Source of the DNA: a virus
Virus record (IMG/VR): IMGVR_UViG_3300022407_006250
Coordinates: 36,786-100,785 of that record
DNA: 64,000 nt
Reading direction: 5' to 3' (one strand)
The translations under genes were made by a program, and so were the position numbers. Shown here one piece after another: positions 39,378 through 63,222 of this stretch; positions within the stretch are counted from its first letter, which is position 1, and each line of letters begins with the position of its first letter. The notes under the pieces were generated by a model. That model made no database searches. It saw nothing but the letters and a program-made list of their open reading frames with translations, and had not been told where the DNA came from.

Positions 39378-41219
39378 GTTTTCGAGTATCGACCTCGCAC
39401 AGTGGGCAACTTGTAACAGTTGTAACTGGATGTAAAAAATTTCAGAAATCGCTTGACAAGGTGGCCCAAAATGGTTCAATCAGAATGACAGAGTGGCAGT
39501 AGCCTCACAGGGTCACCTGTACTGAAAATTTATCTGCAGTGGCCTCACGCGAGGCTGTGTGGAGCACTATCTCGCACACAGGGTTGAACACTGCTCATGT
39601 GATCCTGCGAGGCCATGTGCGGTGGAATCCTGAAAAAAATTTTCAAAAATTCATTGACACGGGCCGTGATCTACACTACAATGATCACATACTGAAACAA
39701 ACAGGAGCAGCAATGGCCAATCTAGATCACATGGCGTTTCTCACGCAAGCACAGGACTTTGCAAGTGCATGGGGAGATGATGCTTGGTTTCATCAAGTGT
39801 ATACTGGTGCACGTGAACATCATGGTGTGCTTGAGTCAGCTGAGTGTGCCTTGCGTGCACAGGATCTGTTGCGTGACTTCATGTTCACTTATTACCCAGA
39901 TCGACTCGTTAGCGGGATTGGTTGACAGACCGAATCACAGTGCTATAATTGCCGCATGAACATGAAACTACACACGGATTCACAAAGGCGTGCTATGACG
40001 CCCGCAATTCGAAAGTTGGCTCAAGACACCGATGCTTGGTGTGAGCAGAATCACATTGACTCAAGTGGTTGGGGCGGAGCAGCCTGGGAAGCAGAATTTG
40101 CCAACCGGATTGTTCTTGCTTGTGCTGAAATTTGCCTGGAAGCCAACGATCACAAAAATATTCTAACACACTTTGGAGTTCAAGCATGACGACCCTAATC
40201 GTAAAATTTGCCCACGAAGCTGGAATCAAAAGCACCTGGGAACAGGCAGTAAGCCCTGCAGAACTGAAATTTGCAGAACTGATCATAGCACAATGTTGTG
40301 CCATAGTGGCGCTAGACAGTGACCGGCCGGCTCAGCAGGTTGTGCGTGAAATCAAGAACTGCTTTGAGGTCTGTGGTTGACCAGGCATGATCCCGATGTT
40401 ACTATACCGTTATTGTGTTTACACCAATTGGGAGACCTTGATGAACTACATTCACAGCCAAGCTATTACCCAGAACTTTTCAGACAGTGAACTGATTGCA
40501 TACCATACAGGCTATCAAGCAGGCTTTGACTACGGGGTGTTGGATGATGATTATGACAACGACAGCACTCTGCGAGCTGCTTACTGTACAGGCTATGATG
40601 CAGGTGTGTTGGCGTTTTGGGCGGAAATGGATGAAGGCAGCTCGCCGGATTAAGGGTTCAACATGAACCATTGGGATCATTTACCAAATTCTCTGGCCAT
40701 CAACAGCATAGTGGATTCCACCTTGCGTCACACCACTCATTGGGGTCGAGTGCTGCACCCCACGACCACCGTGATGAAGAACTGTCAACAGGTGTGGCAA
40801 CAACGCGGTATTCGCAGCGAGGGATGGTATAATTTTGCCGACTCATGCCGCTTGGTGGAGCAGGTGGGTGGGCCCATCCAGGAGTGGCATGAAATCTATA
40901 ATATGTGCGTCTTTAAACGACTGAAAAGACCCTGCTTTTGGGGTGGGATAGCACCCGGCAAAGCCGGTGAGGCGGCTGTTCGTCGCTGGCAAGTGGCCAA
41001 GTATCCACTCTTGGCCCTGGTGTTGAATGATGATATCGAGCGATATCTCACCATGACCATCAGTGAGCTTAAATTGTGGAGCAACTTGAGTCGAGATTTT
41101 AATTCCACATCACTGCTGCCGGCTGCTTACATGGAATATGTTGTCAACCGGCGATAAAAAGATGTTGACAGCAGCCCGCAGCCTGCTACAATACACACAT
41201 AGCAACCGCGAAAGAGTTC

Positions 41220-41585
41220 ATGAATACCTACATGACCCCAGATCATCCAGAGGCATTTCTTGACTGGCCCACACACGCCAGCCGTAGTGACCTAACTCAA
41301 CTGTGCCCACGCTGTCAGGGGCATGGTGGCTGGAATCTCTTGCTTGATCAGTATCGATTGCCCTTCACAGCCGGCGGTGAACGCTATGCCGACACAGCCG
41401 AGAATCGTCACTTGTTCTGTCACTTCCGTGCCATGTGCGATCACTGTACGGGTTGGGGCTGGATTCCAGAATCTGAAACCTGCCCGGGTCATGAGTGGCT
41501 ATATGTAGCAAACGTGGGTCGTTGTTTGAATCAGTATCAGTGCCGTCACTGTTCGCGTGTACAACAAGTTGATTCAAGTGATTGA
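41220..41585 (+). CDS. Cys-rich zinc-finger protein (paralogue of 42266-42550)
   Basis: CxxCxGxG twice, GRCL...C.HC...DSSD. Confidence 0.65.
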   Translation: MNTYMTPDHPEAFLDWPTHASRSDLTQLCPRCQGHGGWNLLLDQYRLPFTAGGERYADTAENRHLFCHFRAMCDHCTGWGWIPESETCPGHEWLYVANVGRCLNQYQCRHCSRVQQVDSSD

Positions 41586-42265
41586 TGTACACATTCTACA
41601 TTGACATTCCACCGGATCGATACTGTGATCCGGTGTTGAAGCTGATTGAGTTTCAAATGAGTTTTGTGTGCAATCACTTGTCCGGCATCAGTCGCGGCGC
41701 TGTATTTCGGGTCGAATGTGACAGTGAGGCGTCAGCTGTGGCATTCTTGTTGCGGAGTGGATTTGGTACCGTTGGTTCAGAACAGATTGCTGCGAGGCAG
41801 ACACGTGCCAGTGGTGTTGAACAGATTGTGCCCTTGACTCTGCAGACTGAAGTGGGTCAATTCAGCAATTACAGTTTTGCAGACTGGCCTCTTAGACAAG
41901 ATCATGCGCGCCACACTTGACTTGTGCGTGGGATCCTGTTATAGTATGCACTTAGACACTCCCGGGTGTCTTTAACTTAAAGGAACCTGTTATGAAAAAT
42001 GCTATCATTGCTGTTCTTGTTATCTTTCTAGCCATTGTGGGTGTTGCCTGGGGCTATGGCTATCTGGATGCAGCTCAATCAGCCGAGACTGTGGTCAATC
42101 CAATCGAAGTTGGTCCAGTGCTTACCGAGCCAGCATCAGCGCCAACATCGGCAGCTGATATAGTACATTTACTGCAACAACGCAGTGCAACTTTGTCAAA
42201 ATGTTGTTGACAACTCCCACAACCCTGCTATAATCTACACATTGCAACACACTGTGGGAGAAGAT

Positions 42266-42550
42266 ATGCTAACTTGTACTGTATGCGCAGGCTCTGGTCG
42301 TGTTCCGGTAGTGCCAGAACTTGAGCGTCATAAGCGGTATATTTCGGGCTATGATCCAGTCACTGACACACTTGGCTGCTCCAATTGTGGTGGCCAATAC
42401 CAGTGGCCCAAGCCCACAGGCCTAGTCAAGGCCAATCGGCTGGGAGAGCCCTGCGTGCATCAATACACAGGCCGCACCATAGGCCGCTGCTTGCATGAGA
42501 ATGTTTGCCTTCATTGTGGTGACTATCATCAAATTGATTCGGGCGATTGA
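42266..42550 (+). CDS. Cys-rich zinc-finger protein
   Basis: CTVCAGSG, CSNCGG, GRCL...C.HC...DSGD. Confidence 0.65.
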   Translation: MLTCTVCAGSGRVPVVPELERHKRYISGYDPVTDTLGCSNCGGQYQWPKPTGLVKANRLGEPCVHQYTGRTIGRCLHENVCLHCGDYHQIDSGD

Positions 42551-42775
42551 ATGAACAAGCATCCGGTGTTGCAGTGGTCAGCCACTGCCGTGACCCTGAT
42601 TGGGGCCATACTGACTGCTGCTGCACTGGATCCATGGAATGTGTACTGTGCCAATCTCGGTAGCATACTGTGGTTGATCTGGGCTGTACGCATGAGAAGT
42701 CACAGCCTAATGGCAGTGAATGCCGGACTCATGCTGATCTATTGTGGCGGCATCATACGTAGTATTGTTTTTTAA
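42551..42775 (+). CDS. Small membrane protein (about 3 TM)
   Basis: Hydrophobic segments. Confidence 0.65.
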   Translation: MNKHPVLQWSATAVTLIGAILTAAALDPWNVYCANLGSILWLIWAVRMRSHSLMAVNAGLMLIYCGGIIRSIVF

Positions 42776-43621
42776 AGATAAAACAACATGAGCACAAACA
42801 TTCGCATCCATGCACACCGCATGATCCAGGTCGTCAAGACTGGTGCCCTAGACACACAGAGCACTGAGTTTGATGCCTGGCAGACTCCCACTACGGACAC
42901 CTGGCACATCATGAATGCCACTGATACAGCGGCCCGCCTGCAGGCCTATCGTGACTGGGTCATGAGTGTCTGCGAGGATCAGCAGGAAGACGTCTACGCC
43001 GAGGATGATCTCTTCCAAGAGGGAGAGCCTGTAGGATTCAACATGGTCAACCACGGGCGTGATCACATTGCTTGGCTGGATGAGTGGCTGCAGCTCTTGG
43101 AGCAGACTGGCTGGGAAGTTGCAGTGGATGCATGGTAAAAAATAATGGTTGACTTGGATGCAAGTCACAGTTATAGTACACACATTGCAACAACGCGGAG
43201 ACGCAAAAATGAAGTTTGAACACGCAGCAGATCATGCGGGTGGCACTTGCTTGCAAGGTCAAATTGTGACCACTTACCAAAAACTTGTGCATCGCTTTGG
43301 TGAGCCCACATGTGAAGGGGATGCCTACAAGGTGCAGGCTGAATGGTGCTTGCGTTTTGAAGATGGTACAGTTGCCACTATCTACGACTGGAAAGAAGGC
43401 GATGCCTACTGCGGCCCAGGTCAAGGCCGGCCAGCTCAAGAAGTAACTGATTGGCACATTGGTGGCTATAACAAACGTGCAGTAGATCGTGTACGTGAAT
43501 TTCTTGTACTGGGCCGCTAAATTTAGTTGACCAAATAGACCAAATAGTTGTTGACAAGTTTGGTCCAATCGCTTATATTACTACTACTGCAACAACGCAG
43601 TGAAACACAAAGGATCTAAAA

Positions 43622-44758
43622 GTGAGCATTCAAATTAGCATTACCAAAGGTTTTTATCGTGGCAAGCCAGTTGCCGGTACCTTTCCCTTGATCAAGCCCT
43701 TCCAAGAAGGTGCACGCGGTGGCTTTGTTACCATTCGTAATCCTGCTGCTGCAGATGGTATGCCGCCTGTTCAGCGTGTAAGCGTTGAGCAAGGTGACTT
43801 TACCTTGCTGGATGCGGCCGGTGCAGAACTTGAGTCACATGTGACCATTGCCACTGACTCGGGCACTATTGAAGTTGGTACCAACTACGAGCAGGCGTTT
43901 GTTGCAGCCGAAACTGAAGATGCTGCCATGGAGCGCATTGCTGAAACGTTCCTTATGCTGGACAAGATTGTGGATGCTTGTGCACGCAATGTTGTGCGTG
44001 GACTTGTTGTCAGCGGCCCTCCTGGCATTGGCAAGAGCTTTGGTGTTGAAAAGCAGCTGGAAGCTGCCAACATGTTCCGCAAGCTGCAGGGCAAGGATCC
44101 CAAGTATGAAGTTATTTCGGGTGGCGTTAGCTCTATTGGCCTGTATCAGAAACTGTATTACAACCGTTCGCCTGAGCAAGTACTTGTGTTTGATGACTGC
44201 GATGGCATCTTGTTTGATGAAGAAAGCCTTAACTTGCTTAAAGCTGCACTCAACTCAGGCGACAAGCGTCGTATCTGCTGGAACAAAGAAAGCCGTACCT
44301 TGGCTGTTGAAGACATTCCAGAACAGTTTGACTTTGAAGCCAGCATCATCTTTTTGAGCAATATTGACTTTGAGCGCACTATCAACAAAGGCTCGCGTGT
44401 TGCAGCACACTTGGAAGCTATCATGAGCCGCTGCCACTACTTGGATTTGGAGATTGGTAGCCTACGTGACAAGCTGCTGCGCATTCGTCAAATTGTGCGT
44501 GATGGCATGCTTACTCCGTACAATTTCACTGCAGAACAAGAGTCTGCTGTACTTGACTTTATTGTTGACAATGCTGAATACCTGCGTGAAGTAAGCTTGC
44601 GCATGGTCAAGAAGGTGGCAGACTTTGTGAAAGCTGATCCAGCAGGTTGGCTTGAAATGGCCGAAGCCACTTGCTTGCAGCGCGAAGCCAAGTTCAAGCG
44701 CCTGTTGGCCAAGCGTTCAGAAGCAGCACGTCGCGGGCTTGTGCTTGCTGACGCGTAA
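43622..44758 (+). CDS. P-loop AAA-type ATPase
   Basis: GPPGIGKS, VLVFDDCD, SRC Arg finger; own promoter and downstream hairpin at 44767-44796. Confidence 0.85.
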   Translation: MSIQISITKGFYRGKPVAGTFPLIKPFQEGARGGFVTIRNPAAADGMPPVQRVSVEQGDFTLLDAAGAELESHVTIATDSGTIEVGTNYEQAFVAAETEDAAMERIAETFLMLDKIVDACARNVVRGLVVSGPPGIGKSFGVEKQLEAANMFRKLQGKDPKYEVISGGVSSIGLYQKLYYNRSPEQVLVFDDCDGILFDEESLNLLKAALNSGDKRRICWNKESRTLAVEDIPEQFDFEASIIFLSNIDFERTINKGSRVAAHLEAIMSRCHYLDLEIGSLRDKLLRIRQIVRDGMLTPYNFTAEQESAVLDFIVDNAEYLREVSLRMVKKVADFVKADPAGWLEMAEATCLQREAKFKRLLAKRSEAARRGLVLADA

Positions 44759-44855
44759 GAGTTGAAGATAGTGACAGCACCATTGCTGTCACTATCCGTT
44801 TGACAATATGACTGATTGGTCATATACTTGTGACACTTAACTAAGGAGACCTTAA

Positions 44856-45101
44856 ATGGCTTTTACTCAACTTCGTACCACCCAAGTGGAATTTCTGGAA
44901 CAGTATCTTCGTGGCACCAACCGTGAACTTTCGAGTGCACAAGCAGCCGCAACCTTTGGCATCAAGAATCTTCGTGCACGTATGACGGACTTCCGCCAAA
45001 TTGGCCTTCGCGTTCGCAAGAGCAAGAACACTGTTGGCCGCACAGTTTACTCTGTGAGCCGTCGTGACATGTTTGGCGACCAAGGCAAGATCTTCGCCTA
45101 A
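44856..45101 (+). CDS. Small winged-HTH-like protein
   Basis: LSSAQA...FGIKNLRARM..R..G pattern; AAGGAG RBS. Confidence 0.6.
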   Translation: MAFTQLRTTQVEFLEQYLRGTNRELSSAQAAATFGIKNLRARMTDFRQIGLRVRKSKNTVGRTVYSVSRRDMFGDQGKIFA

Positions 45102-45126
45102 TACGGTGTCCCCGTGCTAAAGAAAG

Positions 45127-45155
45127 AAGCCCAGCACAGACTGGGCTTTCTTTTT
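45127..45155 (+). terminator. Rho-independent terminator
   Basis: AAGCCCAG-CACAGA-CTGGGCTT-TCTTTTT. Confidence 0.8.
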
Positions 45156-46013
45156 GACAAATAGTTGTTGACAAGCTTCCTACGTGTTCATATAATGAAC
45201 ACATCGCAACAAGGAGTAGACTGTGAAAACAATGTATGATTTTTTGGATGGCATCAATGAATCTATTCGCTTTCGTACACAAGAAATGGAACAGGTTGAA
45301 CCGGCCGAACTGGGGCTAGATCAGCGCAGCGCACGTCATATATGGGTCAGCGATGAGTGCATTATTGTTCGTGCAGGTGATGATCGCAATCTGCAGTACT
45401 ACGGCGGATTTGAATACGTAGACAAAGAGTACCGTGTTGCTATCGGCGATTATGTAATTTACCTTGCCGATGACAATCGTGTATCAGACTGCATTGAACA
45501 GTTCAGCGATGCCCCGGAAGAAGAGTGGACTCCAGACAATGCAGACTTTTGCGATCCGGGCTCACGTCATCACTATTAACAAATAACAGTTGACACCGCA
45601 CCCAAGTGGTGTTAATATACAAACACTGCGATACAGCAGCAACTGAAACAGAAAGACACAAATGATTGATCTTAACAAACAAGCAGACCGTGTATCAGTA
45701 ATGTTGGAAATTATTGACGCAATGAAAAACCCCAACAAGCCCGGTACCATTACTGCTGCAGAGCTGGAAACCTTTGTTTCAAACGATGTTGATCGTCGCA
45801 ATCGCTATGCACCATGCATGGCCGAAGGTGTGCCGTTCCATACCACTATTGCTGCTGCACATTATGTGGCACATGTTCGCCCGGATCTTTGGGTCGATAC
45901 TGAAGCAGCCCGCCGCATGGATGCTCATGCTGTGATGGAAAACATTCGCAATCGTGTTCGCCGTTGGTGCACGGCCGATGATGTTGTTGGCTACTACTGG
46001 ATCTAAGGAGCAC

Positions 46014-46514
46014 ATGATGGATATCAAGTCGCGTGCAATTGAAATCTATAACAGCCACATTGAACTGGCTACCGCCAACGGACGACTGTTTCGCAAGACA
46101 GTTATGCAACAGCTGATGGCTGAGACTGGATGTTCAGAGCCTGCTGCTGCAACACACTACAACACTGCCAAGAAGGTCTCGCCAGTCGAAGGCCTGGGCC
46201 GTGCTTGTGTATCCAAGGGTGTTCGTAAAATCACAATGGGCAAGGGCAAGCCCACAGTTGTGATCCCGGATGCAGAGTGCTACAGTGTGCTGGAACTTGT
46301 ACCACACAACGAAGGATTTGTTGTTGGTCGCTGCCGCAGCTTTGATCTGCAAGGTGATGCAAGCGAAATGTTTGATGAACGCTGTGAAGGTTGGCCTGAA
46401 TCTCACTGGGTCATGATTCAGGGTCTTGGTCCAAACAGCGGCGATACATTTCGCCTGGAGCCAGAAGAACAAGTAATCAAGCGTTATGATTCGGTAGACA
46501 CTGTGGCTGCTTGA
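46014..46514 (+). CDS. Putative DNA-binding protein (paralogue of 28324 and 60404)
   Basis: FRKTVM...GCSEPAAATHYN...VEGLGR. Confidence 0.55.
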   Translation: MMDIKSRAIEIYNSHIELATANGRLFRKTVMQQLMAETGCSEPAAATHYNTAKKVSPVEGLGRACVSKGVRKITMGKGKPTVVIPDAECYSVLELVPHNEGFVVGRCRSFDLQGDASEMFDERCEGWPESHWVMIQGLGPNSGDTFRLEPEEQVIKRYDSVDTVAA

Positions 46515-49500
46515 TGCTACAATAGCTTTACTGGTTAGGGGTTTGCCAGATCTCAAACCCCGCGTGTTATAGGATGTATTATGGAATCGCGTTTGTTTAT
46601 TCGCCAGGCTACTGCAATGATTCAGAAGCTGGAAAGCCTTACTTCACTTGATTTTACCCGCGAAGAACAAGATCAACTGTACAATGAATGCCAGAAAGAT
46701 TTTAACTTTCTGTTTCAGGGCTTGCAAAATCCCACCCTGCCCACTGCAGGCAAACTGCTCGAAGCAGGCATTGCTGCTGGTTTGACAGTTGATCAACGCC
46801 TGATCAACAAGCTGAACCAGGCAGAGTCGCTGTGGAACTAGCCAACACAACAGGCACCTGGGATCATGTCCTGAGTGCGCTGGCCATAGTTTATATAATT
46901 TTGCAGTCGCTGTTCTTTGTATGGTTGTTTCGTAAAATTATTGGCGGTATTTTCATACTTGTGTTTGAACGAGAAAAAATTTATGAAATAATGGCCTATG
47001 CAGGGGACAAAAAAACTCCGCTGCTGGTAAAACCATTTGCATTTATTTTGTGGCTTGTGTTGATAATTGCAAGTTTTATTCTTTCAGTAATTTTTAGTAT
47101 ATTTCTACTTAATGCTCTTGGCAATCTTTTTAAGCGTTAAGGTCTGTGTTACACTATCCGGGGAGGGACAACTGTGAAACAAAATCCCTCCCTAGATAGA
47201 CTTATTATTCGTGCTAGACACAGTAGCAAAATAAGAAAACTAATACACAGAACTTGCGGGTTACAAAAATTGCCCAATAGATGGCTATCAATAAAAACAA
47301 CAAAGAAGTTTTCCAAACAGTTTTATAAAAAATTATCCCAACAACAAAAATTACCTTAGAGTTTGCCGAGTGGATAAAAATTTAAAACAACAGGTACTCT
47401 CACTGGCACGCGCAGTTCGTTCCTGGGCAGAGTCGCGAGATGACGCCCAGAAACATCCTTCTGTGGATCTCAATGGTTGGTGTGCAATTGCCTCGGGCAA
47501 GCTATCACGTGAGCTTGCAAAGAATGAAATTGCTCATGAGATACATGTACAAAGCAGCGATTACGGCTGTCACGTTTATGTTGTTGTTGATGATCATGTG
47601 GTGGATGTTACTGCAACACAGTTTCCAGATTTCAGAAATACACCTGTGCTAATCATGCACTGTCGTGAAGCAGAGTGCTACAGCTACTACAATGCTGCTG
47701 CAACCTTTACCAATGTTGAGCAACTTATAAAGTATCAACGCAAACAAAATTGGTCAACCAATCAAATTGCCTACAGCAAGTAACTGGTTTAAATTTCTGA
47801 CCTGGATTTTTAAACCAAATTTGGAAAATAAAATGTCAAACCTGGTTTGCCTTTTTTGCGCAAAATACATAGCATAAATACGCACACATAACATACATAT
47901 GCTACTCACACGCGCATACATAGAGAAAGCAATGCAGCTTGATGTGAACGACATCCAGTGTGCTCTCATGGTCACCGAGTTCTACGAAGATGCGGCATAT
48001 TTGTCTGATGTGAGTTTTGTAGGCATGAATGAGATGAGTCAGTTTGTTTATAAGGCAACATGGCTCTACACTACACCCGAGGCTGCTGCACCACAGAACA
48101 TATACATTTCAGTGAGATACAGTCCCAACACGTATGGCATTGATTTTTACGCAGACTATTGACTGAGTGCAGGTTGCTGCTATACTATGTACAACTAGAC
48201 AACACAACAAGGATCAACATGTTGAACTTTAACATTGCTCAACGCATGCCGCAAACCATGTCTGATGTGTGGCGTGATCTGGAACGCAAGCAAGCACTAC
48301 GCAGTCTGGTTGAACCGGACGGAACAGAATTTGTTGTAGCACGACAGAGTGATGGAGTTGTGATTGGAACATTTGGAAGTATAACAGATGCGGCGGCTGT
48401 GATCAAACGCGCACATGCCTCAAAGAAAGCCTCCCTGACACTGGCCTGAGCCACCTCGCATCGCCGCTCAACCCATCGTGTGCCCTGACCGCGAGAAGAG
48501 TCAGCCTCGCTGGCTGAAGTTGCATTAATCACGCCATGATGTGAGACTGCGTGCCTGCAGCCCAAGACTCCAAAATATTTGCCGTATTTGCAAAAATACA
48601 ACACACAAAACATTTTGCGATGCTATACTAGCAGCATTGCAACACGTAGGAGATCAAACATGCCAGCTATGACACAAGATGAATTTGTCAAATACGCCCG
48701 CGATGCACTTAGCGGTGACGCGCTGGAGGGGCTCTACGACGTTATTGCAGAGCACAATGGCGAAGTGTCTGCGTTTGGCGATAGCTGGCCGGGTGCACTA
48801 TATAATATTCGTGCGCAAATTGCAGAGGTACAATCTATCGAGCGTCAGCTGGCACGCATCGAAAAGCGCGAGCCCTGCGACTTTGGCTTTCGTGTGCTGA
48901 GCCCGCGTTAAGCTTGACACCAAGGAAACAACATGACTGGTTGGCCACCTGGATTGATGCAAGACGATCATGCTGGTCTCAGCCGCTGGCTGGCCACTCG
49001 TCTGGATGCAGGATATATTTTACGAGTCAGGCTTGACACCCTGTCTATGCCTGCTATACTACTGACATTGCAACACACAAAGGAAACATGATGACTGAAG
49101 CTGAAGCGGGTGTTCTTCTTGCTGTGGAAGCTGCCAAGGCAGCTGCCTATCGTGCCACACAAGACTTCTTGTCTGTAAATGGTGACCGTGATTGCTGCGG
49201 GTTTGCATGGGTCACAGTGTATACAGATGGCCGCAGCAAAGTGGGTCGCAGCCTCATGAAGGCCGGGTTCCAAAAGGTGTATGGCCAGCAGGGACTGCAG
49301 ATGTGGAACCCATCGGGACACCGTACGCAGGCCTTGACTGCCAAGGAAGTGGGTGCTGATGCAGCGGCGCGGGTGTTGCGCGAGCGACTGGGCGTGGAAG
49401 CTTACTCCAACAGCCGCATGGATTAATAGTACTGCGGCATTGACTGTAGCACCAACAGGTGCTATAGTACTGACATTGCAACAAGGAGCTGGTACAATGA

Positions 49501-50437: not shown

Positions 50438-50887
50438 ATGGGACTGGACATGTACCTCAAAGGCAAGCGTTATTTGCACGATTATTCGTCATTTGACTGC
50501 CCTACTAGGCGTGCAGTTAATGATGCCTTTACAGGCACTCCACTGCACGGCAAGATCAATGAAGTCAGTGCCGAAATTGCATATTGGCGCAAGGCCAATG
50601 CAATCCACAATTGGTTTGTAACCAATTGTCAAGGCGGGCGCGACGAATGTCAGCTTTCGTATGTGTCTCACGAAAATTTGACCACGCTGCGTGATCTTTG
50701 CCGTGAGGTGTTGGCAAGCAAGTGTGCAGAAAAGTTGCCGCCCACTAGCGGATTCTTTTTTGGCAGCACTGACGTTGACGATGGGTACTTTGGGGACTTG
50801 CAATACACAGCCGATACACTCAGTGAAATTGTTGACAATCCGGGTACCTACAAAGACTGGGATTTCTTTTACCAAGCCAGCTGGTGA
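50438..50887 (+). CDS. Conserved phage hypothetical protein
   Basis: MGLDMY, YWRKANAIHNWF, GFFFGS, YQASW. Confidence 0.7.
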   Translation: MGLDMYLKGKRYLHDYSSFDCPTRRAVNDAFTGTPLHGKINEVSAEIAYWRKANAIHNWFVTNCQGGRDECQLSYVSHENLTTLRDLCREVLASKCAEKLPPTSGFFFGSTDVDDGYFGDLQYTADTLSEIVDNPGTYKDWDFFYQASW

Positions 50888-51115
50888 TTGCCTGTGCAAC
50901 CTCTCAAACTTTTCTTTGCGATTGGGTTAATTATCTACATCGCAATAGGTGCTTGGGCGGCATGCACAGGCCTCAAGATCAACATCCTGGTTTCAATTGT
51001 AGGTAGCACGATTTGCGTGGCCGGAATTAAAATGAGCGACCATGTGTAAAAACAGTTGACTCAAGAGTGTTTCCTGCTATACTAGCAGCATTGTAACGCA
51101 ACAAGGAGAACTAAC

Positions 51116-52122: not shown

Positions 52123-52191
52123 ATGATCGCATTATATTTTCTCATTATGTTTATATTTTACATGGCTGTTCTTATATTTATAGAAGACTAG
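52123..52191 (+). CDS. 22-aa hydrophobic peptide MIALYFLIMFIFYMAVLIFIED
   Basis: AAGGAG RBS, TAAATA promoter at 52090; not in ORF track. Confidence 0.5.
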   Translation: MIALYFLIMFIFYMAVLIFIED

Positions 52192-52231
52192 ATCCTGATC
52201 GGTAAATAAGTTTTTTAAAGGATCGGTTAAG

Positions 52232-52789: not shown

Positions 52790-54679
52790 TCAAGAGGCCA
52801 AGTCTACATCTTGAATACGCAGGCATTGCTTGCGTATTTTTTTGACTGATCTTTCACAATTGAGCTTGACACTGCCCTAACATCTGCTATACTACACACA
52901 TGACAACAGCAACTGAAGAGGACTTGAACATGCCACACTACGATATGTTTAGCGATGCCGGTGATGCAGCAGTACACCAGCTGGTGGAGACTGCACAGCG
53001 TCTCGCCTGGACTTGGCCTGAAGTACTATTCCAGCTCGAGGCACTGCGCCGTCGGCCCGGTTGTGAAGAAGCAACGGATACAGCAGTTCGCGAATCTGTT
53101 TTTAACGCACTGCGTTTTTACGAAAAAGACGTTGACTTCTACGCTTAAGACACTATACTAACAACTGTGCAACACACTGGAGTTACCATGTCCAAAGTAG
53201 TCAAAGTTGAAGCAAAGGTAGATCTTTACATCACAGTGCCCGATGATGCGACTGATAATGATGTCTATAGTTTCCTTGTAGAAAACATCAGCTATCGTGA
53301 TGCGTTCCTGGGTGTAAGTGATGACACCATGCGTGTGACTGAAGTCATGTGCTTGACTGAAAAGATCTTTGCAGTAGAAGGAGAATAGCACATGGCAAAA
53401 TTTCAAGTGACAGCCACGCTGACCGTAGAAGCTGATGATGACTCGGAGGCTTGGTCGGTAACTGATGCAGCCTTGGCCAATTTGGTTTGGCGGGGTGCTA
53501 TCGAGAAAGTTGAAGTGGGTGAAGTCAAAGAGCTAGAAGCTAAATAATGCCAAACGTGGTTTGGCGGTGCCGTATAGCCCCTACAAGCGTGAGAACATAC
53601 GAGCGTGTGGCTCACGCCTTAGTACGCTATAACCCGCACCCGCGCCCCTTCTGCAAGTTCTCGAACGGGCGACTGCTGATTGGTACAGATACGCTGCATC
53701 GTACGAGGGCTAGTCGACTCTGGCGCCAGTTCTGGCGCATGAAGCGGCGCGTGCTAAAAAATATCTAGGCTTGCAGGATCAGGTGTGCTATACTAGCAGC
53801 ATTGCAACACAGAGGGAGACACAATGAGCATCCTGGACATTATGGAATCCATCACACCCTCCGACTTGATGGAAGTGACCCGGTATAGACCCTACAAGGT
53901 AACTGCTGACATAGGCTGCAATCGAGTGGGTGACAAGTTTGTTATCTTTGACATGGCGTCAAACGACTATCACACCTTGTCTGTGAAATGCAGCACACCC
54001 GAGCGTCTGCTGGAGCACTTCAAGGGTTTCATTGAAAATCGTCTAGCAGCAAAATAAGTTGTTGACAGTTCATTTAGTGCTGCTATAATGACTGCATTGC
54101 AACACACAGGAGTAGAAGATGTCTTATGTACTCTTACACCGCGCACAAGGCGGTCGTCCAGAACCACTCAAGACCTATAGCACACGCAAAGGCGCTGTGA
54201 TTGGCATGCGTGCTTCAAACCGTAATGCAGGATGGCATCGTTACAGCCTATGCAGCACAAGCTGGGCCGAAATGGAATGGTGCAGCAACAGCAACAAGGT
54301 GTATGATTACGCACCTTACATCATCATGCACGAAAAAAATTATCAAATAAAGTACCCTGCTCTTGCACAGGTGTTCGTTTAAGATGCTATACTAGCAGCA
54401 TTGCAACACACAGGAGAACATGATGAATGATCTGCAACAAGCAATCAAAATGATTCACAACAAATCAGCGGAACTGGGCCTGGACTTTTTGTCAACGGCT
54501 GAATGGCTGCAAGCTCATCGTGAAGAAATGTCCGCGGTAGAGTGCCGGTTGTTCCGTGTGTTCATGACTGAGGGCCAAAAGATGTTTGCCGTGGTCTAAA
54601 TAAAACACAAGGGCCGCTTGACAAACCGGTTCCTTCCACTGCATAATACATACATCGCAACAACATACTGGAACACAAA

Positions 54680-55456
54680 ATGCAACTCCAGCAAACTCAA
54701 GTCCGCGCCAAGTGTAATGAAACGTTTGCTAAAGCAAAGACTCTGTGGCCAGATATGAACTTTGACAATGTTGGCATTCGTTTCGACCTAAAGGGTCGTG
54801 CAGCGGGAATGGCTTGCCGTCGAGCAAACGCCTACCATATGCGTTTCAATGCTGAAATGATGACACGCGATGCTTTTGATCATGTGCTCAATAACACTGT
54901 GCCGCATGAAATTGCACACATTGTGTGCATGATGAATCCCCGGCTGGGACGCAATCATGATGCAGGTTGGACTCGCGTGTGCCGCTTGTTGGGCGGTAAT
55001 GGTGAACGTTGCCACAGTGAGGATGTGGTGTATGGTAAAGGCAATACTTACGAATATGTCACAGATCGTGGGCATCGTGTGCGTGTGTCAGGTGCTATCC
55101 ACCAAAAAATTCAACGCGGCGTGGTATATGCATGGAAGCAAGGTAAAGGCAAGGTTGGTATGGAGTCTGCCTACAATCTGGTTGGTGTAAGCGGACGCTC
55201 AATTGTTGCAGCTGAAAAGAAACCCGCTGCGCCTGCAGCAGCAATGGTACAGTCTCAAGTGGCCCCGGTAATGTCAGCTGCACACACAGGCGAAAGCAAG
55301 GCTGCAATCAGCCGTCGTATCATGTTGTCGGGGCACAGTGCAGGACACGGCTACGAAACAATTGTTTCAGCCATGATGCTGGCTTGTGGCTATGATCGTC
55401 AACTGGCACGTGCGACCTTCAAGGCAAATGCGGCCCGTGTGGGTATCCCGGCATAA
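54680..55456 (+). CDS. SprT-like zinc metalloprotease
   Basis: GRAAG.A, TVPHEIAH, H...W, RCH. Confidence 0.85.
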   Translation: MQLQQTQVRAKCNETFAKAKTLWPDMNFDNVGIRFDLKGRAAGMACRRANAYHMRFNAEMMTRDAFDHVLNNTVPHEIAHIVCMMNPRLGRNHDAGWTRVCRLLGGNGERCHSEDVVYGKGNTYEYVTDRGHRVRVSGAIHQKIQRGVVYAWKQGKGKVGMESAYNLVGVSGRSIVAAEKKPAAPAAAMVQSQVAPVMSAAHTGESKAAISRRIMLSGHSAGHGYETIVSAMMLACGYDRQLARATFKANAARVGIPA

Positions 55457-56170
55457 AAGCGTTGACAGCAGGCTCCTGTTGTGGCATAATAGACTTATCG
55501 CAACCAGGGGTCAGCCATGGGATACACCACATTCACCCGTAATGAAAACTATGGACCTCGGCCAGGCCTAGAGGGTCCGTTCACTTACCCAAACGGGCGT
55601 GTGGTGTACTATGACCCACGCGAAGGGCAGTACTGGGATCCACGCACAGACTTTTACCTGTCACATGAAGAAGCAGGCGACTTGCAGGCTTGCATTTTTA
55701 AAGCACTTAAGGGTTGACATCGCGTCGCAATCCACTACAATACATTCATACACAGCAGGAGCAACAGATGTCAAAAGAAGACAAAGAAGCACGCGAAGCA
55801 CGCTCACGGGATCATGCCCTACAAGAGGATGCACGGCGTCAGGCGCTGGCGGACACCTACCCACAGCGACTTATGACTGCGCTGGCTCGAGCACAACGGG
55901 TCAATACCATTGTGGAGGTTGATGCTGCTGAGATGAGTTTCAAGGTCATATTCCGCGATTCGGGTGCTGTACGTGATGTTCCTTATGCTTATGATCCGGT
56001 TCTTTGGTCTGAAGATCTACTGCATCGCTTGGAGCTTGAGTGCGTCGAGGCCGAGTTTGAACATGAAGAACGTCGCCGCGTGGCCGCCTTACGTCAAAGT
56101 GCGCTGGCCAAACTGACTCCGGAAGAGCAACGGGTACTGGGATTGTGGGATTGATATACAGGAGATCCGG

Positions 56171-56362
56171 ATGGCCAAGTATACTGTAATAATCAAAGAA
56201 GTTCACATCACGCAAGTTGAGGTAGAAGCAACCTCGCTGGGTGAAGCACGGCACATGGCAGAGGATCTGTTAGAGTCTGGTGAGGCGGGCGAGTCGAAAT
56301 ACAGTCACACCATTCCATCATTTGAATGGCCTGTATTGCTTGAAGGCTGTAATGTTCGCTAG
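56171..56362 (+). CDS. DpnD/PcfM-like small protein
   Basis: Y.V.I.E....VEVEA.S..EA pattern. Confidence 0.45.
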   Translation: MAKYTVIIKEVHITQVEVEATSLGEARHMAEDLLESGEAGESKYSHTIPSFEWPVLLEGCNVR

Positions 56363-57218
56363 ATTCGCTTGACAGTGTTCCAAACCCTGCTATAATCACT
56401 GCATAGCAACGCAACACTAGGGGCACAAGATGAGCAACGAATTCCGCAGCTGGGATGATTTGAGCGACTTAGAGCGTGCAGATTGCACCTTTTCAGATAT
56501 GTACAAGGATGCTCACGGCGTTCGCCCACATGGCATCAGTACCCAAGGCTGGACCTTGGAAGACTTTGGTCGTGAGTTTGACCGCTTGCAACTGATCATT
56601 GAACGTGAAGAGCAGGACCGAATCCTGCGTGAAAACCAGGCTATTATTCACTTTGAGCGTCGCTTGCAGGAGCTGGGCAAGTTGGGTGCAGTAGACCGTG
56701 CAGATGCCATCCGTTGGTGCTTGATAAGTGACCAGGCACAGGACCTGGAGCACCTGGCCTGGCTTAATGAATTACCTTGGAACTATTTCCCAAAGCAGGC
56801 TTGACGAACTAAGTGATTCTGCTATAATCACTGCATAGCAACACAACAGGAGAACTAGATGACACGAGTACAAATCCTCTTGGCACCATCCCGTATATTG
56901 GGTGAATTTTACTTTCGCAGTCCCGATACTGTGTCCTTGATTCGCGAGTTTCATCATGAATATCAAGTGGCTGGTGAATTTGCCACTGACCGCACAGGGC
57001 AGGATGCAGCCGAAGAAGCATTTGATCTCACAAACAATCCCGGCCGCGATCAAGAGCGTGAAGAGAAATATGGTCGTGGTCGCAGCGTTAGTGTTGGCGA
57101 CATTGTTCGTGTGGGCACCGATGAATGGGTGTGCATGAGCACTGGTTGGAAATTGTTGGAACTTGCTTGACAATCGGGTTCCAACACCAGCATAATCGCA
57201 ACTTACTAGGGAAACAAA

Positions 57219-58499
57219 ATGAACACACGTAAATTTCACAAATTGTCACTACTTGTAGTTTCACTGATTGCTGCTGGACTTACTGGCTGTGGCGGTGGTG
57301 ATTCAGCTGATACCAGTGTTACTGCATCGGCTGACAATGGCGGTGAAGTGGTTCGTATGAGCCGCATAGTTGACACCAGCAAGAAAGGTGTTAATGCCGC
57401 TTGGGTTGGCTCAGGTGTTGGTAAAACGGTTAGCCCAAGTGATATGCGTGCACACTACAAAATGCCAGCAGACCTTGACGGCACTGGACAAACGATTGCA
57501 ATCGTTACCGCGCCAAGCACTGGCGATCCGGCTGCAGACTTGAATTACTTCAGCAATTATTATAAATTGCCGCAATGCAACGCTGCCAATCCTTGCTTTA
57601 GTCGCATCAACTTGATGAGCAATCCCGCACGCAAGATCAGTGCTGGTGCGGATTGGGCCATGGAAGTTGCACTTGATGTGCAGTGGGCACACGCGGTGGC
57701 CCCGGGCGCCAAGATTGTGCTGGTTACTGCCAACACCCATGGACTATTTGACATGATGAATGCAGTAAAGGTTGCTAGCAAGATTCCAGGAGTTACCACA
57801 GTTTCAATGAGCTGGGGTGGTCGTGATCAGCCCCTGACCACTGCCAAGACACTTGATGCCATTTTTGCTGCTGCGCCAGGTGTGGCTTTCTTTGCTGCCA
57901 CAGGCGATTGGGGCAATCAAGGCACCAATCAAACTTACCCATCCACCAGTCCATATGTAACTGCGGTTGGTGGCACCAGTGTGCAGCGTGCAGGTACACC
58001 CACTGATCCGCTGAATGAAGTCACATGGCGTTTGGGTGGTGGTGGAGCAAGCCAATATGTGTCTATGCCGCTGTATCAAACCCAGTACTTGACTGGCAGC
58101 AATGTTTTGGCACTCAGCAATGGCAAGCGCACTGTTCCTGACGTGGCCTACAACGCTGATCCGGCGTGGAGCCCAGTTGGCATCCGTGTTAACGGAACAT
58201 GGCGTGCAGTAGGTGGTACCAGCGCAGGTGCTCCTCAGTGGGCAGGTATTGCAGCGCTCCTGGCACAGAACATGGCCCGTCGCGGACAACCGTTTAGCAC
58301 TTATGTACGCGGTGCAGGCGGCTTCAATGCCTTGCTCTACCAGACCAAACTGTATACGTCGTTTACGGATATCACTACTGGTTCAAATGCACAAGGTGCA
58401 GTTCGTAATAACTGTGCCCTGTGCTCAGCAGGCACTGGATACGATGCGGCAACTGGACTTGGTGTGCCAAACGTAGAAAACCTGGTCAAGTTCTTTTAA
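57219..58499 (+). CDS. S53 (sedolisin/kumamolisin-like) serine peptidase, lipoprotein
   Basis: Lipobox LTGC, EVALD, SMSWG, TGD, AVGGT, PDVA, GGTSAGAP, GYDAATGLG. Confidence 0.88.
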   Translation: MNTRKFHKLSLLVVSLIAAGLTGCGGGDSADTSVTASADNGGEVVRMSRIVDTSKKGVNAAWVGSGVGKTVSPSDMRAHYKMPADLDGTGQTIAIVTAPSTGDPAADLNYFSNYYKLPQCNAANPCFSRINLMSNPARKISAGADWAMEVALDVQWAHAVAPGAKIVLVTANTHGLFDMMNAVKVASKIPGVTTVSMSWGGRDQPLTTAKTLDAIFAAAPGVAFFAATGDWGNQGTNQTYPSTSPYVTAVGGTSVQRAGTPTDPLNEVTWRLGGGGASQYVSMPLYQTQYLTGSNVLALSNGKRTVPDVAYNADPAWSPVGIRVNGTWRAVGGTSAGAPQWAGIAALLAQNMARRGQPFSTYVRGAGGFNALLYQTKLYTSFTDITTGSNAQGAVRNNCALCSAGTGYDAATGLGVPNVENLVKFF

Positions 58500-58628
58500 G
58501 CAGGGCAAGGGGGTTGGGTGCGGTATATGCCCAACCCCCACATGCTACTCAGTAAGTGATCTGCGATAAATAAGGTGTGTAGTACATGATGTGCTACACA
58601 CCTTTTCTTATGACCGGCAGGGTATGAT

Positions 58629-58781
58629 ATGAAATCATTTTTCGTCAGCATGATATTTTACGGAACCCTTATAGGCCAAATTGGCGCTGCATTACTTGTT
58701 GTTGGCATTTTAATACTTGTGGTATACGGCTGCAGACACATGGACACACAGGATGATGAGCCCGTTGACGGCGAGCACTGA
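58629..58781 (+). CDS. 50-aa membrane protein (not in ORF track)
   Basis: One long hydrophobic segment; TAAATA at 58567. Confidence 0.45.
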
Positions 58782-58785
58782 AACC

Positions 58786-59109
58786 ATGGCTGTCACTCTC
58801 ACTGAAGCCGCAGCACGGCACGTCACCCGCTACATCGGCAAGCGTGGCAAGGGCGTGGGCGTGCGTCTGGGCGTTCGCACCACCGGCTGTTCGGGCCTGG
58901 CCTACAAGCTCGAGTACGCCGACGACGTGGCACCCGAGGACACGGTGTTCGAAGACCATGGCGTGAAAGTGCTGGTCGATCCCAAGAGCCTGCCCTACAT
59001 CGACGGCACCGAACTCGACTTCGTGCGCGAAGGGCTCAACGAGGGCTTCAAGTTCCACAACCCGCGTGAAAAAGACCGCTGCGGCTGCGGCGAATCATTC
59101 CGGGTCTAA
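58786..59109 (+). CDS. iscA: A-type Fe-S cluster carrier IscA
   Basis: [36 protein letters not shown]; GC-rich codons. Confidence 0.95.
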
Positions 59110-59305
59110 CGCCCCAACACGCTTAAATAATTAACGAGTAAGACTACACGCCAAGTGCTTCTAAATTCTGAGTTTTGAATTTCAAGGTTAGATTTTTATT
59201 TCAGATTTCTATTTCAGGATTCAATTCCAAAATCCCAATCTTAGATAAAGATCTCGCTATGATTTCTGAGACTGATCGGCACTTTTTGCGAGAATTTTTA
59301 GTCAT

Positions 59306-59338
59306 AAAAAAATGCAACTGGTGCCAGTTGCATTTTTG
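59306..59338. terminator. Bidirectional terminator
   Basis: AAAAAATGCAACTGG-TG-CCAGTTGCATTTTT. Confidence 0.8.
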
Positions 59339-59351
59339 TTTTGCGTAGTGT

Positions 59352-59741
59352 TTAAAGCATTGCAGCACGCACTTCGTCTGCTATGGTATATGCGTCGTAA
59401 CTGGCACGTTCTACGTCTTGCATACCCCACTCGCTGGTAGCAACATTGCGTGCTGCGTTTGCGCTAAACCCTGCTGCAACAAGTTTATCTTGTAGCGTGC
59501 CGGTGTACGCATCATGCCAGTAAAACATACCCATTGTATCAACAGTTTGCTCGTAACTGTCTGCATTTGGTGTGCTGTACGCAACTCCTAAATCGCTGTC
59601 GCTGTACCAGTCATCTTCAGCTTCAGCTGCAACAAACATGGTAATGCTGTTGATAAACACACCCATAAATGTTTCATCAATGGGCACATTGAGCAGAAAG
59701 CCCTGATCGACAGGGCTAACAAAGTCTTTGATGTTTGGCAT
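59352..59741 (-). CDS. Hypothetical protein
   Basis: Minus-strand promoter (TTGCAG-16-TATAAT) and GGAG RBS. Confidence 0.7.
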   Translation of the reverse strand: MPNIKDFVSPVDQGFLLNVPIDETFMGVFINSITMFVAAEAEDDWYSDSDLGVAYSTPNADSYEQTVDTMGMFYWHDAYTGTLQDKLVAAGFSANAARNVATSEWGMQDVERASYDAYTIADEVRAAML

Positions 59742-59999
59742 ATGAGCTCCGTATTGCTGCTGTGTTGCAGTACACGTATTATAGCATGTCTGGGTGTAAC
59801 TGCAACCCTTGTTACAAGTTGTTACAAGTTCTCGCCCTCTGGGTCAACTCAGCTGGTGTATACATGCGAGGCAGACTGATCTCGTACCGTTTGCACGCAA
59901 CTGCCACCCCACATGCGAGAAGGGCTATATTCTCACACCACTTGCACGCAACTGGGCAACAGGTATGAGAACAGTAGCATCCCTGCCCCACTGCCCTCA

Positions 60000-60404
60000 T
60001 CACACCCAGTACAGTTTGGCCTTCTTCTGTGCCACTGCCTTCTGTACCATGCAGCGTGCATCTTCAAACGACAGGCCTTCAGCAATTGTAGCACCGTTTG
60101 AGCAACGCTTGACAGCGAATTCTGTCTGCACCACTTCCACGAACTCGCGTGCTACTGCCTTAGGCTTGCGACCACCCTTTTTGTCATCTGGACGTCCCAG
60201 TCCCTCAACCAGCTCTGGGCTTGCTTCGCGGCACTTTTGGAAACTGTGATTGTAGTGTGTAGCGGCGCTGGTAACAGGGATGCCAAACTCTTCCACAATG
60301 TGGCTCATCACTGCTGCACGGAACGCGGTGTTACCCATTGCCGCACGCTGTGGCAGCAGTTCCATGAACTTGAAGTTGCAAGTAGCGCGAATTCCTTTGT
60401 CCAT
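60000..60404 (-). CDS. Putative DNA-binding protein (paralogue of 28324 and 46014)
   Basis: FRAAVM...GIPVTSAATHYN...VEGLGRP..KKGGRKPK; own promoter and AGGAG. Confidence 0.6.
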   Translation of the reverse strand: MDKGIRATCNFKFMELLPQRAAMGNTAFRAAVMSHIVEEFGIPVTSAATHYNHSFQKCREASPELVEGLGRPDDKKGGRKPKAVAREFVEVVQTEFAVKRCSNGATIAEGLSFEDARCMVQKAVAQKKAKLYWV

Positions 60405-60760
60405 TTCGTTTCTCCTTTGTGTGTTGCGATACGTGTATTATGCATTCACTAGAAATGTTGTCAACGTGTTTTTGGCACTGTTACACTTTGTTACATCTGG
60501 TACTTCTCGCTTGATCGCATGAGCACTGCATGAGTTTGCCTGCGAGACTCTGGACCTTCTCACAAGATCACAAGTGCAGTCTGCAGATCTATCAGTGAGG
60601 CCAGTAGAGATAGACACCGCTTGAACCTTGCTTGATTGTATGAGCAGTGCATGAGTTTGCCTGCGAGACTTTAGACCAAGAACTTGTAACAATGTGTAAC
60701 AGCGGTTGCTTTGAAAACTAGTTGTGTTATAGTTACTGCACTGAACACAAGGAGAAGCAC

Positions 60761-60973
60761 ATGAACACTGAACAACTGGAACAACTGTTTGCAGACATTG
60801 CAGCACAAGAACTCAACATTGACACGCTGAAGACACAAAGTTCAGGCCAGGACTTCCACGAAGTTGCAGTATGGTGTGTACGAAATGCACTTGCAGCAGC
60901 GTACACAGCGGGCAATGCACGCGGACGCCTAGAACAAAGCGCGCAAACACGCCGCCGTGCAGATCAAGGTTGA
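60761..60973 (+). CDS. DUF6900-like small protein
   Basis: IA...L.I.TL.T..S..DFHEVAVW....AL.AAY.AG. Confidence 0.55.
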   Translation: MNTEQLEQLFADIAAQELNIDTLKTQSSGQDFHEVAVWCVRNALAAAYTAGNARGRLEQSAQTRRRADQG

Positions 60974-62957
60974 CGGCACTTCTCTCAAATGCTATAGTAA
61001 CCGGTAAACAAGGAGAGAGGTATGAACACAGCATTTTATGTTTTGGGACTTGCTGCCGTAATCGTTTTTGCACCACTTGCTTCTATTTGGGCATTCAACA
61101 CACTTTTTCCTATTCTAGCAATTCCCTACACATTCGAAACCTGGCTTGCAACCTGCTTGCTAGGCATGTTTGTTCGCGGTATCAAAACAGAATCAAAATG
61201 AATCAAGAACTTGAATTGGTGAAAGAATTGGTCAAGTTGCGGATAGGTGTTGCTCGTGCAGCACAGGCAATAGGCATTGCGGATATTGACAGCCCCTTCC
61301 CAGTGGAGGGCTTGGCCTACGAGCAATTGTGGGACCTTGCCCACAACCGGCAGCGTGGATGGAATCGCTTGTGCGAATTGATTGCTGACGAAGCACAGCG
61401 GCTTCAACAATACCGGGACTTCACATGATCACTTTGGCAATTATCGCTTACCTGGTGCTGCTGATCATGGTGTTGGCATTTAGCCCGGCCATCGCAATTG
61501 TGGCTTACATTGTACTGCTGGCGCTCGTCGTGATGTTTAACCATGCTGCGTCTGTGCTCAGTGAGCATGAGGAGTAAAAAATGAAGACAGTGCCTGCTGT
61601 TCGACATCCACTCAGTCCGCTGGCCCAGGATTTCCTTGCCGGCCTTCCCGCCGGTATGATGACTTTTACCGAGAGCAATTTTCCACACATCGTGGAAAAA
61701 TTCCAACGCGCATGGGGTCGTGCTCAACGCATGAAGAATCTAAAAGAAGAACTGGTGTTTGAAAAGCGCCTGAACCGACAGGGCTTTCCTTTTGAAGTTG
61801 TCAATGAGATATTTGCTGTGTTTGAGTATTATGAACAGCACATGACACTGCCGCCACGAGTCTGCATGTGGGGCGACACTGAGTACTAAACGGTTGACAT
61901 TCACTGGCCACAAGCATACAATAGCAACAACAACTAGGGAAACAACATGTACAAAAGCACACTTTACATTCGCGTGGTACCACAAGATCGGGATCGTGAC
62001 TATGTACTGCTGGCCAGTTTTGATCCTGCAGTGGTTCAGCGCACAGCAGCCGAATACAGCACTCTTACAAGCCCCACACGCGCATCACTTGATGCAGCAG
62101 TTGCACGCCTGGAACAACGCTACAACGCAGAAATCAAGGATGTTACTACTCCTGCTATTGTGAAGCAACTGGCACGCTTGTTTGGGGAAGTAGTGCCCAC
62201 TGCCAGCAAGAAGAAGTCTGCACCCGAACCTCAAACCGCAGAAGACGCTCCGCTCTAACGGGAAACAGTCATGCTGAGACTGATTGGTGCCTGCACCTTA
62301 ATCTATCTACTGTTTCACTGGGGCATACTTACTACCCTAGTTCACTTGTTGATTGCAGCTCTCATAGTGATATTAATGGTATAAAGTCAAAGGGGGGTGA
62401 GGTTGATGGGGTGTCCCGTCAGCACGCACACTGGGCCGAGACAGACTGTGCACTCACCCCCTCGTGGTATCCCGGGATCAGCCACACAATCCCACAAGAT
62501 TGAATCAATCTTGTTGACACAACTACCAGTTGTGTTATACTTGCTACACAGCAACACACAGGAGTCACGCATGATTGAAATAGTTCAAGCAGCACTTCAA
62601 GGACTTTTTATAATTGCAACCCCCATCCTTGCAGCCGCTGCTGTTGGTAATTTTTTGAACTAGCCTGCGCTAGAGAGTCTGTCCGTATGAAACAACATTT
62701 CCGTTATCAAGTGGTTGCAGCCGTATCTTCCCTTACGGATGCCGATGTAGACAGTCGTGGATGGCAAATTTTAGCCCAATCCAACTGCTTTCGCACAGCA
62801 CGTCGCGAGTGTATCGAATGGGCTGCGTACGATGATATCTTGGTTCAAGTTGTCAAACAGGCACAAGTCGAGTTCTCATGCGACGGCTACCTGGAAGCAA
62901 CTGAACGCTATCCAAGAACATGTGATGCAGTCTAACAAACAACTAGCACGCTATTTA

Positions 62958-62988
62958 AAACACGCAAGTAAAATTGCGTGTTTTTTTT
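62958..62988 (+). terminator. Rho-independent terminator
   Basis: AAACACGCAA-GTAAAA-TTGCGTGTTTTTTTT. Confidence 0.8.
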
Positions 62989-63222
62989 ATTGTGTGTAAA
63001 GTCTCACAACTTGCTCAACAATTTTAATTTATACAAGTAGTCCCGTGAGGCTCAGTCAACAACACTGACAGCACTCAAGCCTCGCCATACACAATTAAAC
63101 GTGCGCCAGCGGCTCTGTGAGAAGCACCAGATGTAACAAATGTAACAGCACTTGTGCTTTTTGCGCTGTGTGTTATATTACTACTACTGCAACACGCAGT
63201 GCAACTAACGCAAAGGCACAGT

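Follow-up and report, generated by a model that had tools for sequence, protein, structure and literature searches.

A recurrent spaced inverted repeat, possibly a protein-binding site, in the early region of an uncultured jumbo phage

Protein p4 of phage phi29 is a small dimer that bends DNA and builds a multi-site complex on operators made of spaced inverted repeats (CTTTTT-N15-AAAATG). Wrapped sites of approximately 35-40 bp are bound by TF1 of phage SPO1, by IHF and by HU-type proteins; TF1 acts in a phage whose DNA is modified, and its sites lie close to early promoters. Here we analyze a repeated inverted element, YCTCRY-N28-31-RYGAGR (hereafter a unit), present in a 64,000-nucleotide stretch of viral DNA (the window) that forms the final 64 kb of the 100,785-bp record IMGVR_UViG_3300022407_006250. 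Like the phi29 p4 sites, the units combine short inverted arms with non-specific intervening DNA, and several of them stand beside early promoters. However, the arm sequence is different, the spacer measures 28-31 or 37-41 bp instead of 15 bp, and p4 sites are not known to form tandem arrays of 50-58-bp period as the units do; no p4 homologue was found. Similarities to TF1, IHF and HU sites include the size (about 37-41 bp), the small amount of sequence apparently read in the middle and, possibly, weak flexible steps about 9-10 bp apart around the center. In contrast, those proteins are not known to read conserved symmetric outer arms of such kind.

A third parallel is with the PeSL cassettes of T4-like phages, which are likewise repeated composite non-coding modules where an element and an early promoter adjoin terminators at gene-cassette boundaries in a plastic early region (PMC4122927, PMC2839356). 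The PeSL is a true terminator stem-loop with conserved sequence, whereas the units have conserved arms only, a variable interior that does not pair and phased arrays. By analogy, these three systems appear to be the closest to the element; its arm sequence and spacing, its array structure and the absence of a stem set it apart from each of them. A literature search retrieved no description of it, just as it had not been recognized as a described element in an initial sequence-only reading of this DNA.

Recurrence, spacing and conservation of the units

The complete record was scanned with the pattern YCTCRY-N-RYGAGR, allowing spacers of 10 to 80. Thirteen matches have N28-31 (1, 1, 3 and 8 at N28, N29, N30 and N31, respectively), whereas other spacers yield none or one each, with the sole exception of N79 (three matches). 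All 13 fall within window positions 39570-63121, in agreement with the sequence-only reading, which had reported units in the early region and, from a non-exhaustive look, none in the intergenic DNA of the first 38 kb. The 12 units listed at that time proved correct in their coordinates, ends, preceding pyrimidine and following purine, the one at 60627 having a degenerate CTTGC arm. Two matches inside open reading frames (ORFs), at 47399 and 50667, were absent from that list and may be the one or two expected by chance. Three further intergenic units have long spacers (39503, N40; 63002, N37; 63937, N41). Units and pattern matches in the window are the following:

39503..39554, long-class unit (N40), whose right end is the zero-spacer palindrome CCTCACGCGAGG; the long class also occurs in relatives
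39571..39611, single unit (N31), about 35 bp upstream of the -35 element of a TTGACA-N17-TACAAT promoter with an A-tract
47399..47439, pattern match (N31) within the conserved ORF 47370-47783, possibly due to chance
48455..48545, two units in tandem (N31 and N30, with a period of 51), flanked by gene 48159-48449 and by the extended -10 promoter (TGCTATACT) of gene 48660-48911
50667..50707, pattern match (N31) within ORF 50438-50887, possibly due to chance
59253..59292, single unit (N30), with a bidirectional intrinsic terminator (59308-59337) 16 bp further on
59831..59969, three tandem units (N30, N29, N28; 50- and 51-bp periods), flanked on one side by the stop of gene 60000-60404 (minus strand) and on the other by the TGTAACA boxes and promoter of gene 59352-59741 (minus strand)
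60506..60667, three units (N31 each) between divergent promoters, the third with a decayed CTTGC arm
62361..62401, weak unit (N31) with an AT-rich interior, its right arm overlapping a ribosome-binding site; may be fortuitous
63002..63050, long-class unit (N37), following the terminator at 62957-62984
63081..63121, unit (N31), 10 bp before the CCAGATGTAACA-AATGTAACA boxes and promoter of gene 63154-63831
63937..63989, long-class unit (N41), at the record end

The tandem period, put at about 50 bp from inspection of the sequence, measures 51 bp in the first array, 50 and 51 bp in the second, and 53 and 68 bp in the third. Degenerate half-sites have a 2.5-fold higher density in the last 24.8 kb of the record; they are paired in 34 of 70 cases in the early region versus 2 of 87 in the rest of the genome, units being rare outside the early region. 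Altogether, the motif recurs far above chance. As a separate observation, the palindrome CCTCACGCGAGG (39543-39554) consists of both arms abutted with no spacer.

The designation of this region as early is supported. Sites of the T4 late type (NTAAATA plus ATG) number 11, all in the first 60 kb of the record, while sigma70-like matches and a GCAACA...GGAG leader (11 of 14 occurrences) concentrate in the last 24.8 kb. With a CheckV completeness of 28%, the record covers only part of a jumbo phage genome of roughly 370 kb; the early region, at the record end, thus does not lie at a physical genome end.

Relatives were fetched via P0001, a 134-aa protein encoded between two of the arrays. In four viral-contig loci with proteins 44-53% identical, the same motif is found at N27-31, clustered near the P0001-type gene. 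In 32 metagenome loci (182 kb), there are 10 matches at N28, 11 at N29, 20 at N30, 28 at N31 and 3 at N32, and almost none at other spacers. After removal of near-duplicate loci, the pooled set (about 270 kb) was scanned with a slightly relaxed arm pattern. The main peak at N26-32 comprises 123 matches (3, 6, 15, 16, 34, 44 and 5; mode 31); there are none at N33-36, followed by a minor peak of 18 at N37-41 (4, 6, 6, 1 and 1) and values near zero elsewhere, whereas a reversed-sequence control is flat (0-3). Thus, both the arms and the spacer peak are kept in distant uncultured relatives. All the checks set out with the sequence-only reading (a spacer peak, density outside the early region, half-site conservation among related phages) favor a real element. 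One of these, a complete 369-kb record with terminal repeats, has its units clustered around the record ends. A nucleotide search of isolate phages gave no match. Relatives without units were searched for a different arm sequence with the same geometry, yielding only a promoter/ribosome-binding-site coincidence in locus L010.

Chance or a compositional artefact might account for a few cases, since 2 of the 13 strict matches fall in ORFs and unit 62361 coincides in part with a ribosome-binding site. The spacer histograms, obtained here and in independent relatives and set against other spacers and reversed controls, refute this explanation for the whole set; we give it virtually no credence.

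Comparison with a 90%-identical relative (L009) shows that arms are kept, with changes that preserve purines and pyrimidines (ACGAG to GTGAG). L009 has an intact version of the decayed CTTGC arm of unit 60627. Identity is 88% in interiors, as in other non-coding DNA, and one interior carries a 1-bp indel; by this comparison, interiors drift like neutral DNA. The 60506 unit together with its linker (about 53 bp) is present in the window and absent in L009.

Such gain or loss of a whole unit plus linker would suit a scheme in which the units are recombination sites or hot-spots, PeSL-like or served by a dedicated recombinase, at which the plastic early region reshuffles its promoter and gene cassettes. 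Units also mark transcription-unit boundaries, homology between loci L011 and L018 breaks in unit-bearing non-coding stretches, and PeSLs are composite terminator/promoter motifs flanking variable genes (PMC4122927). However, homologous recombination would require more than five to eight conserved bases, no recombinase is linked to the units, and the breakpoints may merely reflect fast turnover of non-coding DNA. Moreover, quantized tandem linkers and conservation across phages with 45-55% identical proteins point to a bound factor rather than to passive repeats. We therefore regard recombination as an unlikely role for the element.

Arm symmetry, interiors and the question of an RNA product

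Conservation reaches equally far on both sides, giving an 8-bp arm consensus of G-Y-CTC-R-Y-A on the left and T-R-Y-GAG-R-C on the right, with T or A just inside the arms and C or G just outside. A typical unit thus reads CTCGCA, some 30 variable bases, TGCGAG, for a length of about 41 bp; in some relatives the fifth arm base is G. Both strands present the same pattern, and units have no preferred direction with respect to transcription. Arm centers are about 36 bp apart, or about 3.5 helical turns, so that on straight DNA the arms face opposite sides. The linkers of tandem arrays come in classes of 10-13, 16-18 and 26-28 bp; their sequences and lengths (10-28 bp) vary, so that tandem units share only the arms (5-8 bp). 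Words resembling TTAGAC/GTCTAA recur in linkers.

The arm TGCGA resembles the half-site of CRP/FNR sites (TGTGA-N6-TCACA), with which the element also shares two-fold symmetry. The polarity, however, is everted (TCGCA...TGCGA) and the spacer is 28-31 bp, while junctions between tandem units have the form TGCGA-N12-20-TCGCA and not the N6 of CRP sites. The sequence-only reading had made the same distinction.

No strongly conserved column is found beyond the arms. Interiors show weak mirror-symmetric signals, namely A at position 6 (46%), T at 14-15, A or G at 17-18 and C at 21, and TTGA/TCAA accumulate at offsets 13-14 and, mirrored, at 23-24. A symmetric but weak T..A(G) signal, located 14-18 positions from either unit end, might correspond to the flexible steps that lie about 9 bp apart at the center of IHF, HU and TF1 sites. 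By eye, an IHF consensus was not seen in a few units, and readings of the interior as a sigma32 or sigmaE site, a promoter within the unit, an IHF consensus or a tRNA arm were dropped for inconsistent positions. Compared with the 100-kb record, interiors gave no matches beyond chance elsewhere in it.

Across all loci, GATC is 3.4-fold enriched in unit interiors and TTGATC occurs in 23 units versus 2.9 expected; genome-wide, GATC is at its expected frequency (374 observed, 373 expected). This enrichment could indicate that units serve as initiator or architectural sites of a replication origin, or as decoys titrating a host DNA-binding protein, and the same might be said of the long non-coding arrays with promoters and AT-rich stretches in relatives and of the AT-rich stretch adjoining unit 59253. 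Yet units are spread over 24 kb at many promoters rather than at one locus, and the motif is not known to match any host-factor consensus. We deem both roles improbable.

Pairing between arms was analyzed in 134 non-redundant units, and folding in 170 units compared with shuffles of their interiors. Only the CTCG/CGAG pairs, 4 bp, are invariant. The fifth arm position is G:G or C:C in 37 of the 134 units and the flanking pair is C:A in 37 of 134; pairing thus fails at either position in approximately 28% of units. Watson-Crick counts hardly exceed those obtained with shuffled partners, without covariation beyond CTCG/CGAG. The folding energy is no better than that of shuffled interiors (mean z -0.2), and the 12 units of the window also fold like shuffles, so the early remark that interiors differ and do not self-pair stands. 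No T-run follows the units. Invariance limited to CTCG/CGAG, the lack of covariation at the positions that follow and interior folding that does not surpass shuffles together make a hairpin unlikely; a structured RNA hairpin or intrinsic terminator was rejected on these grounds and for lack of a U-tract. Rfam (gathering thresholds) and ARAGORN returned nothing in the early region, only three tRNA matches at 10-26 kb.

These results bear directly on the possibility that units function as RNA-level modules, whereby transcribed arrays would provide short handles around a variable insert of 28-31 or 38-39 nt; processed or bound by a protein, these modules could serve as guides, antisense RNAs or decoys. 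Limitation of constant pairing to 4 bp, the unpairable units, the unremarkable folding energies and the Rfam and ARAGORN outcome all speak against it, as do strand symmetry, interiors lacking matches beyond chance and inter-unit sequences that are not a conserved repeat. In addition, the 60506-60667 array lies between divergent promoters, so that no known transcript covers it. On the other hand, insert-length classes are narrow, and units lie about 15-25 nt before intrinsic terminators in six loci (59253 in the window and five cases in relatives). Furthermore, loci L005 and L011 contain kilobase-long non-coding stretches where eight or more units of both length classes are mixed with promoters and followed by a terminator at the end; a sigma70-type promoter, a conserved short hairpin, several units and an intrinsic terminator occur there without any ORF. 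Because of these arrays, we assign a small-RNA alternative a rather small but not negligible probability. Its original form, an array with 6-bp closing stems, is weakened by the 28% of unpairable units and the missing folding signal.

With their tandem period (about 50-58 bp) and their variable inserts, about 30 nt long and confined to narrow length classes, the arrays also recall CRISPR arrays and the RNA repeat arrays of type III toxin-antitoxin systems. Unlike these, they have no conserved repeat between inserts; single units are common, both strands present the same pattern, and neither a cas nor a toxN gene was seen. A CRISPR array proper was rejected because there is no direct repeat of 23 bp or more, only the 5-8-bp arms being shared across linkers of 10-28 bp. 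That the arrays are dedicated non-coding transcription units, giving minimal-handle RNAs with a variable insert loaded on a protein, in the manner of a repeat-poor CRISPR-like or decoy guide system of jumbo phages, appears to us a long shot.

A short segment, GGAGGGGAAGCTCTGAC, is conserved after promoters in the non-coding arrays (L005:6616-6650 and 7085-7135; L011:2505-2540 and 2985-3025) with no start codon nearby. It may represent the 5' end of a non-coding RNA.

Promoter context and the putative binding protein

Sequence reading and a consensus scan place units upstream of sigma70-type early promoters, often beside TGTAACA boxes, and adjoining terminators. At four promoters, a TGTAACA box pair with a 10-bp period stands between the unit and the -35 element:

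59810..59826, minus strand, TGTAACA boxes in tandem (10-bp period), flanked by the unit array and by the promoter of gene 59352-59741
60479-60495 (minus strand), 60685-60701 (plus strand) and 63132-63147 (plus strand), similar TGTAACA box pairs

The gap between unit and box is 3-4, 10, 20-21 or 28 bp. A module in which units are followed by CAGATGTAACA-N3-TGTAACA and then by the promoter is kept in many relatives. Direct repeats of TGTAACA one helical turn apart suggest an activator or response-regulator-type site. Tandem TGTAACA boxes also occur at window 39412-39435 and in loci L005, L007, L009, L011, L016, L027 and L035. These boxes are often preceded by CAGA, lie just upstream of the early-promoter -35 and are conserved across distant relatives.

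As in a spaced inverted-repeat operator, two-fold symmetric arms stand at a fixed distance and are kept across relatives while the spacer drifts. Symmetry without covariation, the sharp spacer rule, discrete linkers, the gap between divergent promoters and the combination of conserved arms with drifting interiors lead us to favor, with moderate confidence, the view that units are binding sites of a symmetric protein which bends or wraps DNA and organizes or regulates early transcription units. Among the initial proposals, an operator for a protein spanning about 3.5 helical turns fits best, considering the symmetric 8-bp arms, the absence of covariation beyond CTCG/CGAG, the spacer classes, the linkers and the divergent-promoter gap. 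The data speak neither for nor against another initial proposal, shielding or translocation of first-entering DNA. A two-fold symmetric protein, dimeric or tetrameric, would bind each unit by reading the outer 8-bp arms GYCTCRYA and TRYGAGRC, while the roughly 28 bp in between would be bent or wrapped and not read. Interiors would then be free to vary, save for the weak mirror-symmetric signals about 5 bp on either side of the center. Units separated by fixed linker lengths would stack into a larger nucleoprotein array. Judging from placement alone, such arrays might regulate or insulate early transcription units, for example through early shut-off, activation or a block to read-through. The binder is probably phage-encoded, and two candidates are found in the window:

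60000..60404, minus strand, P0001 (134 aa), bracketed by both arrays; candidate binder only
44856..45101, plus strand, winged-helix protein of 81 aa (Pfam HTH_39), with a 67%-identical counterpart in the 369-kb relative; the other candidate binder

The AlphaFold model of P0001 predicts a three-helix N-terminal domain, a basic AT-hook-like linker and a small alpha/beta C-terminal domain. The family, which counts 579 metagenomic relatives, has an invariant linker, GLGR...KKGGRKPK. Its three paralogues in the window, at 60000-60404 (minus strand), 45954-46514 (plus strand) and 28324-28713 (plus strand), have in common FRK..VM...ASAATHYN...EGLGR and the basic linker. P0001 has no Pfam, PHROG or PDB sequence match, and a protein search of isolate phages gave none either.

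A number of observations argue against the units being sites for such a protein. No protein is identified as the binder, the P0001 family and the 81-aa winged-helix protein being candidates only. Structure searches with P0001 return only weak matches (helical, winged-helix or L7/L12-like), and its family also occurs in loci without units (L010, L037-L040). Since, in addition, the SAATHYNH helix of the family is invariant whatever the arm variant, comparing arm variants is uninformative. No HU/IHF-family gene (Bac_DNA_binding, PF00216) is present in four records (G000-G003), among them the complete one of 369 kb, although a host HU or IHF might take this role. Transcription is clear for some units, which are inter-cistronic (48455, 59831) or located in a 3' untranslated region, and the ORF-less arrays of L005 and L011, between promoter and terminator, would also suit an RNA product. 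There is a slight Watson-Crick excess at positions 4-6 and at flank -2 (P 0.01-0.05). The long class lies about 8 bp away from the main one, which is short of a full helical turn and hence not accounted for by simple rotational phasing. Finally, many relaxed-pattern matches in relatives fall within ORFs, as called by a crude procedure that over-predicts them. The element itself is real and widespread; taking all this into account, whether it is a cis-regulatory protein-binding repeat of phages seems to us about an even call.

If a protein does bind, the element would be the main early-region cis-regulatory element of a large clade of uncultured jumbo phages, whose marker protein has its 579 relatives in metagenomes and none among sequenced isolates. 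It would offer a testable handle on how early transcription driven by the host polymerase is organized or shut down, and a ready bait for pull-down experiments. Arms separated by 3.5 turns, the discrete second length class and the phasing of the arrays make for a geometry uncommon among bacterial operators, which may point to a new DNA-wrapping regulator.

Other features of the early region

Upstream of P0001 homologues, tandem promoters are found at L005:10640-10700 and L007:13860-13915 and in L015, L016, L027, L031 and L035. The first promoter leads to a possibly leaderless ORF of 15-17 codons (ATGGA.ACA...). At its end, this ORF overlaps both a TGTTACAC box and the second promoter's -35. 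This arrangement is absent upstream of the P0001 copy in the window.

The sequence GCAACA(C) between the -10 and the ribosome-binding site is common to early transcripts at window 39.2-64 kb (for example, 60405-60436, 59742-59790 and 48630-48659). As to coding capacity, the early region includes genes with family matches to SprT-like proteins (54680-55456), subtilases S8 (57219-58499), Fe-S cluster biosynthesis proteins (58717-59109; PF01521) and DUF6900 (60761-60973). The product of gene 43622-44758 is 43% identical to a protein of PA5oct-group jumbo phages that is called "thioredoxin" in some of those records.

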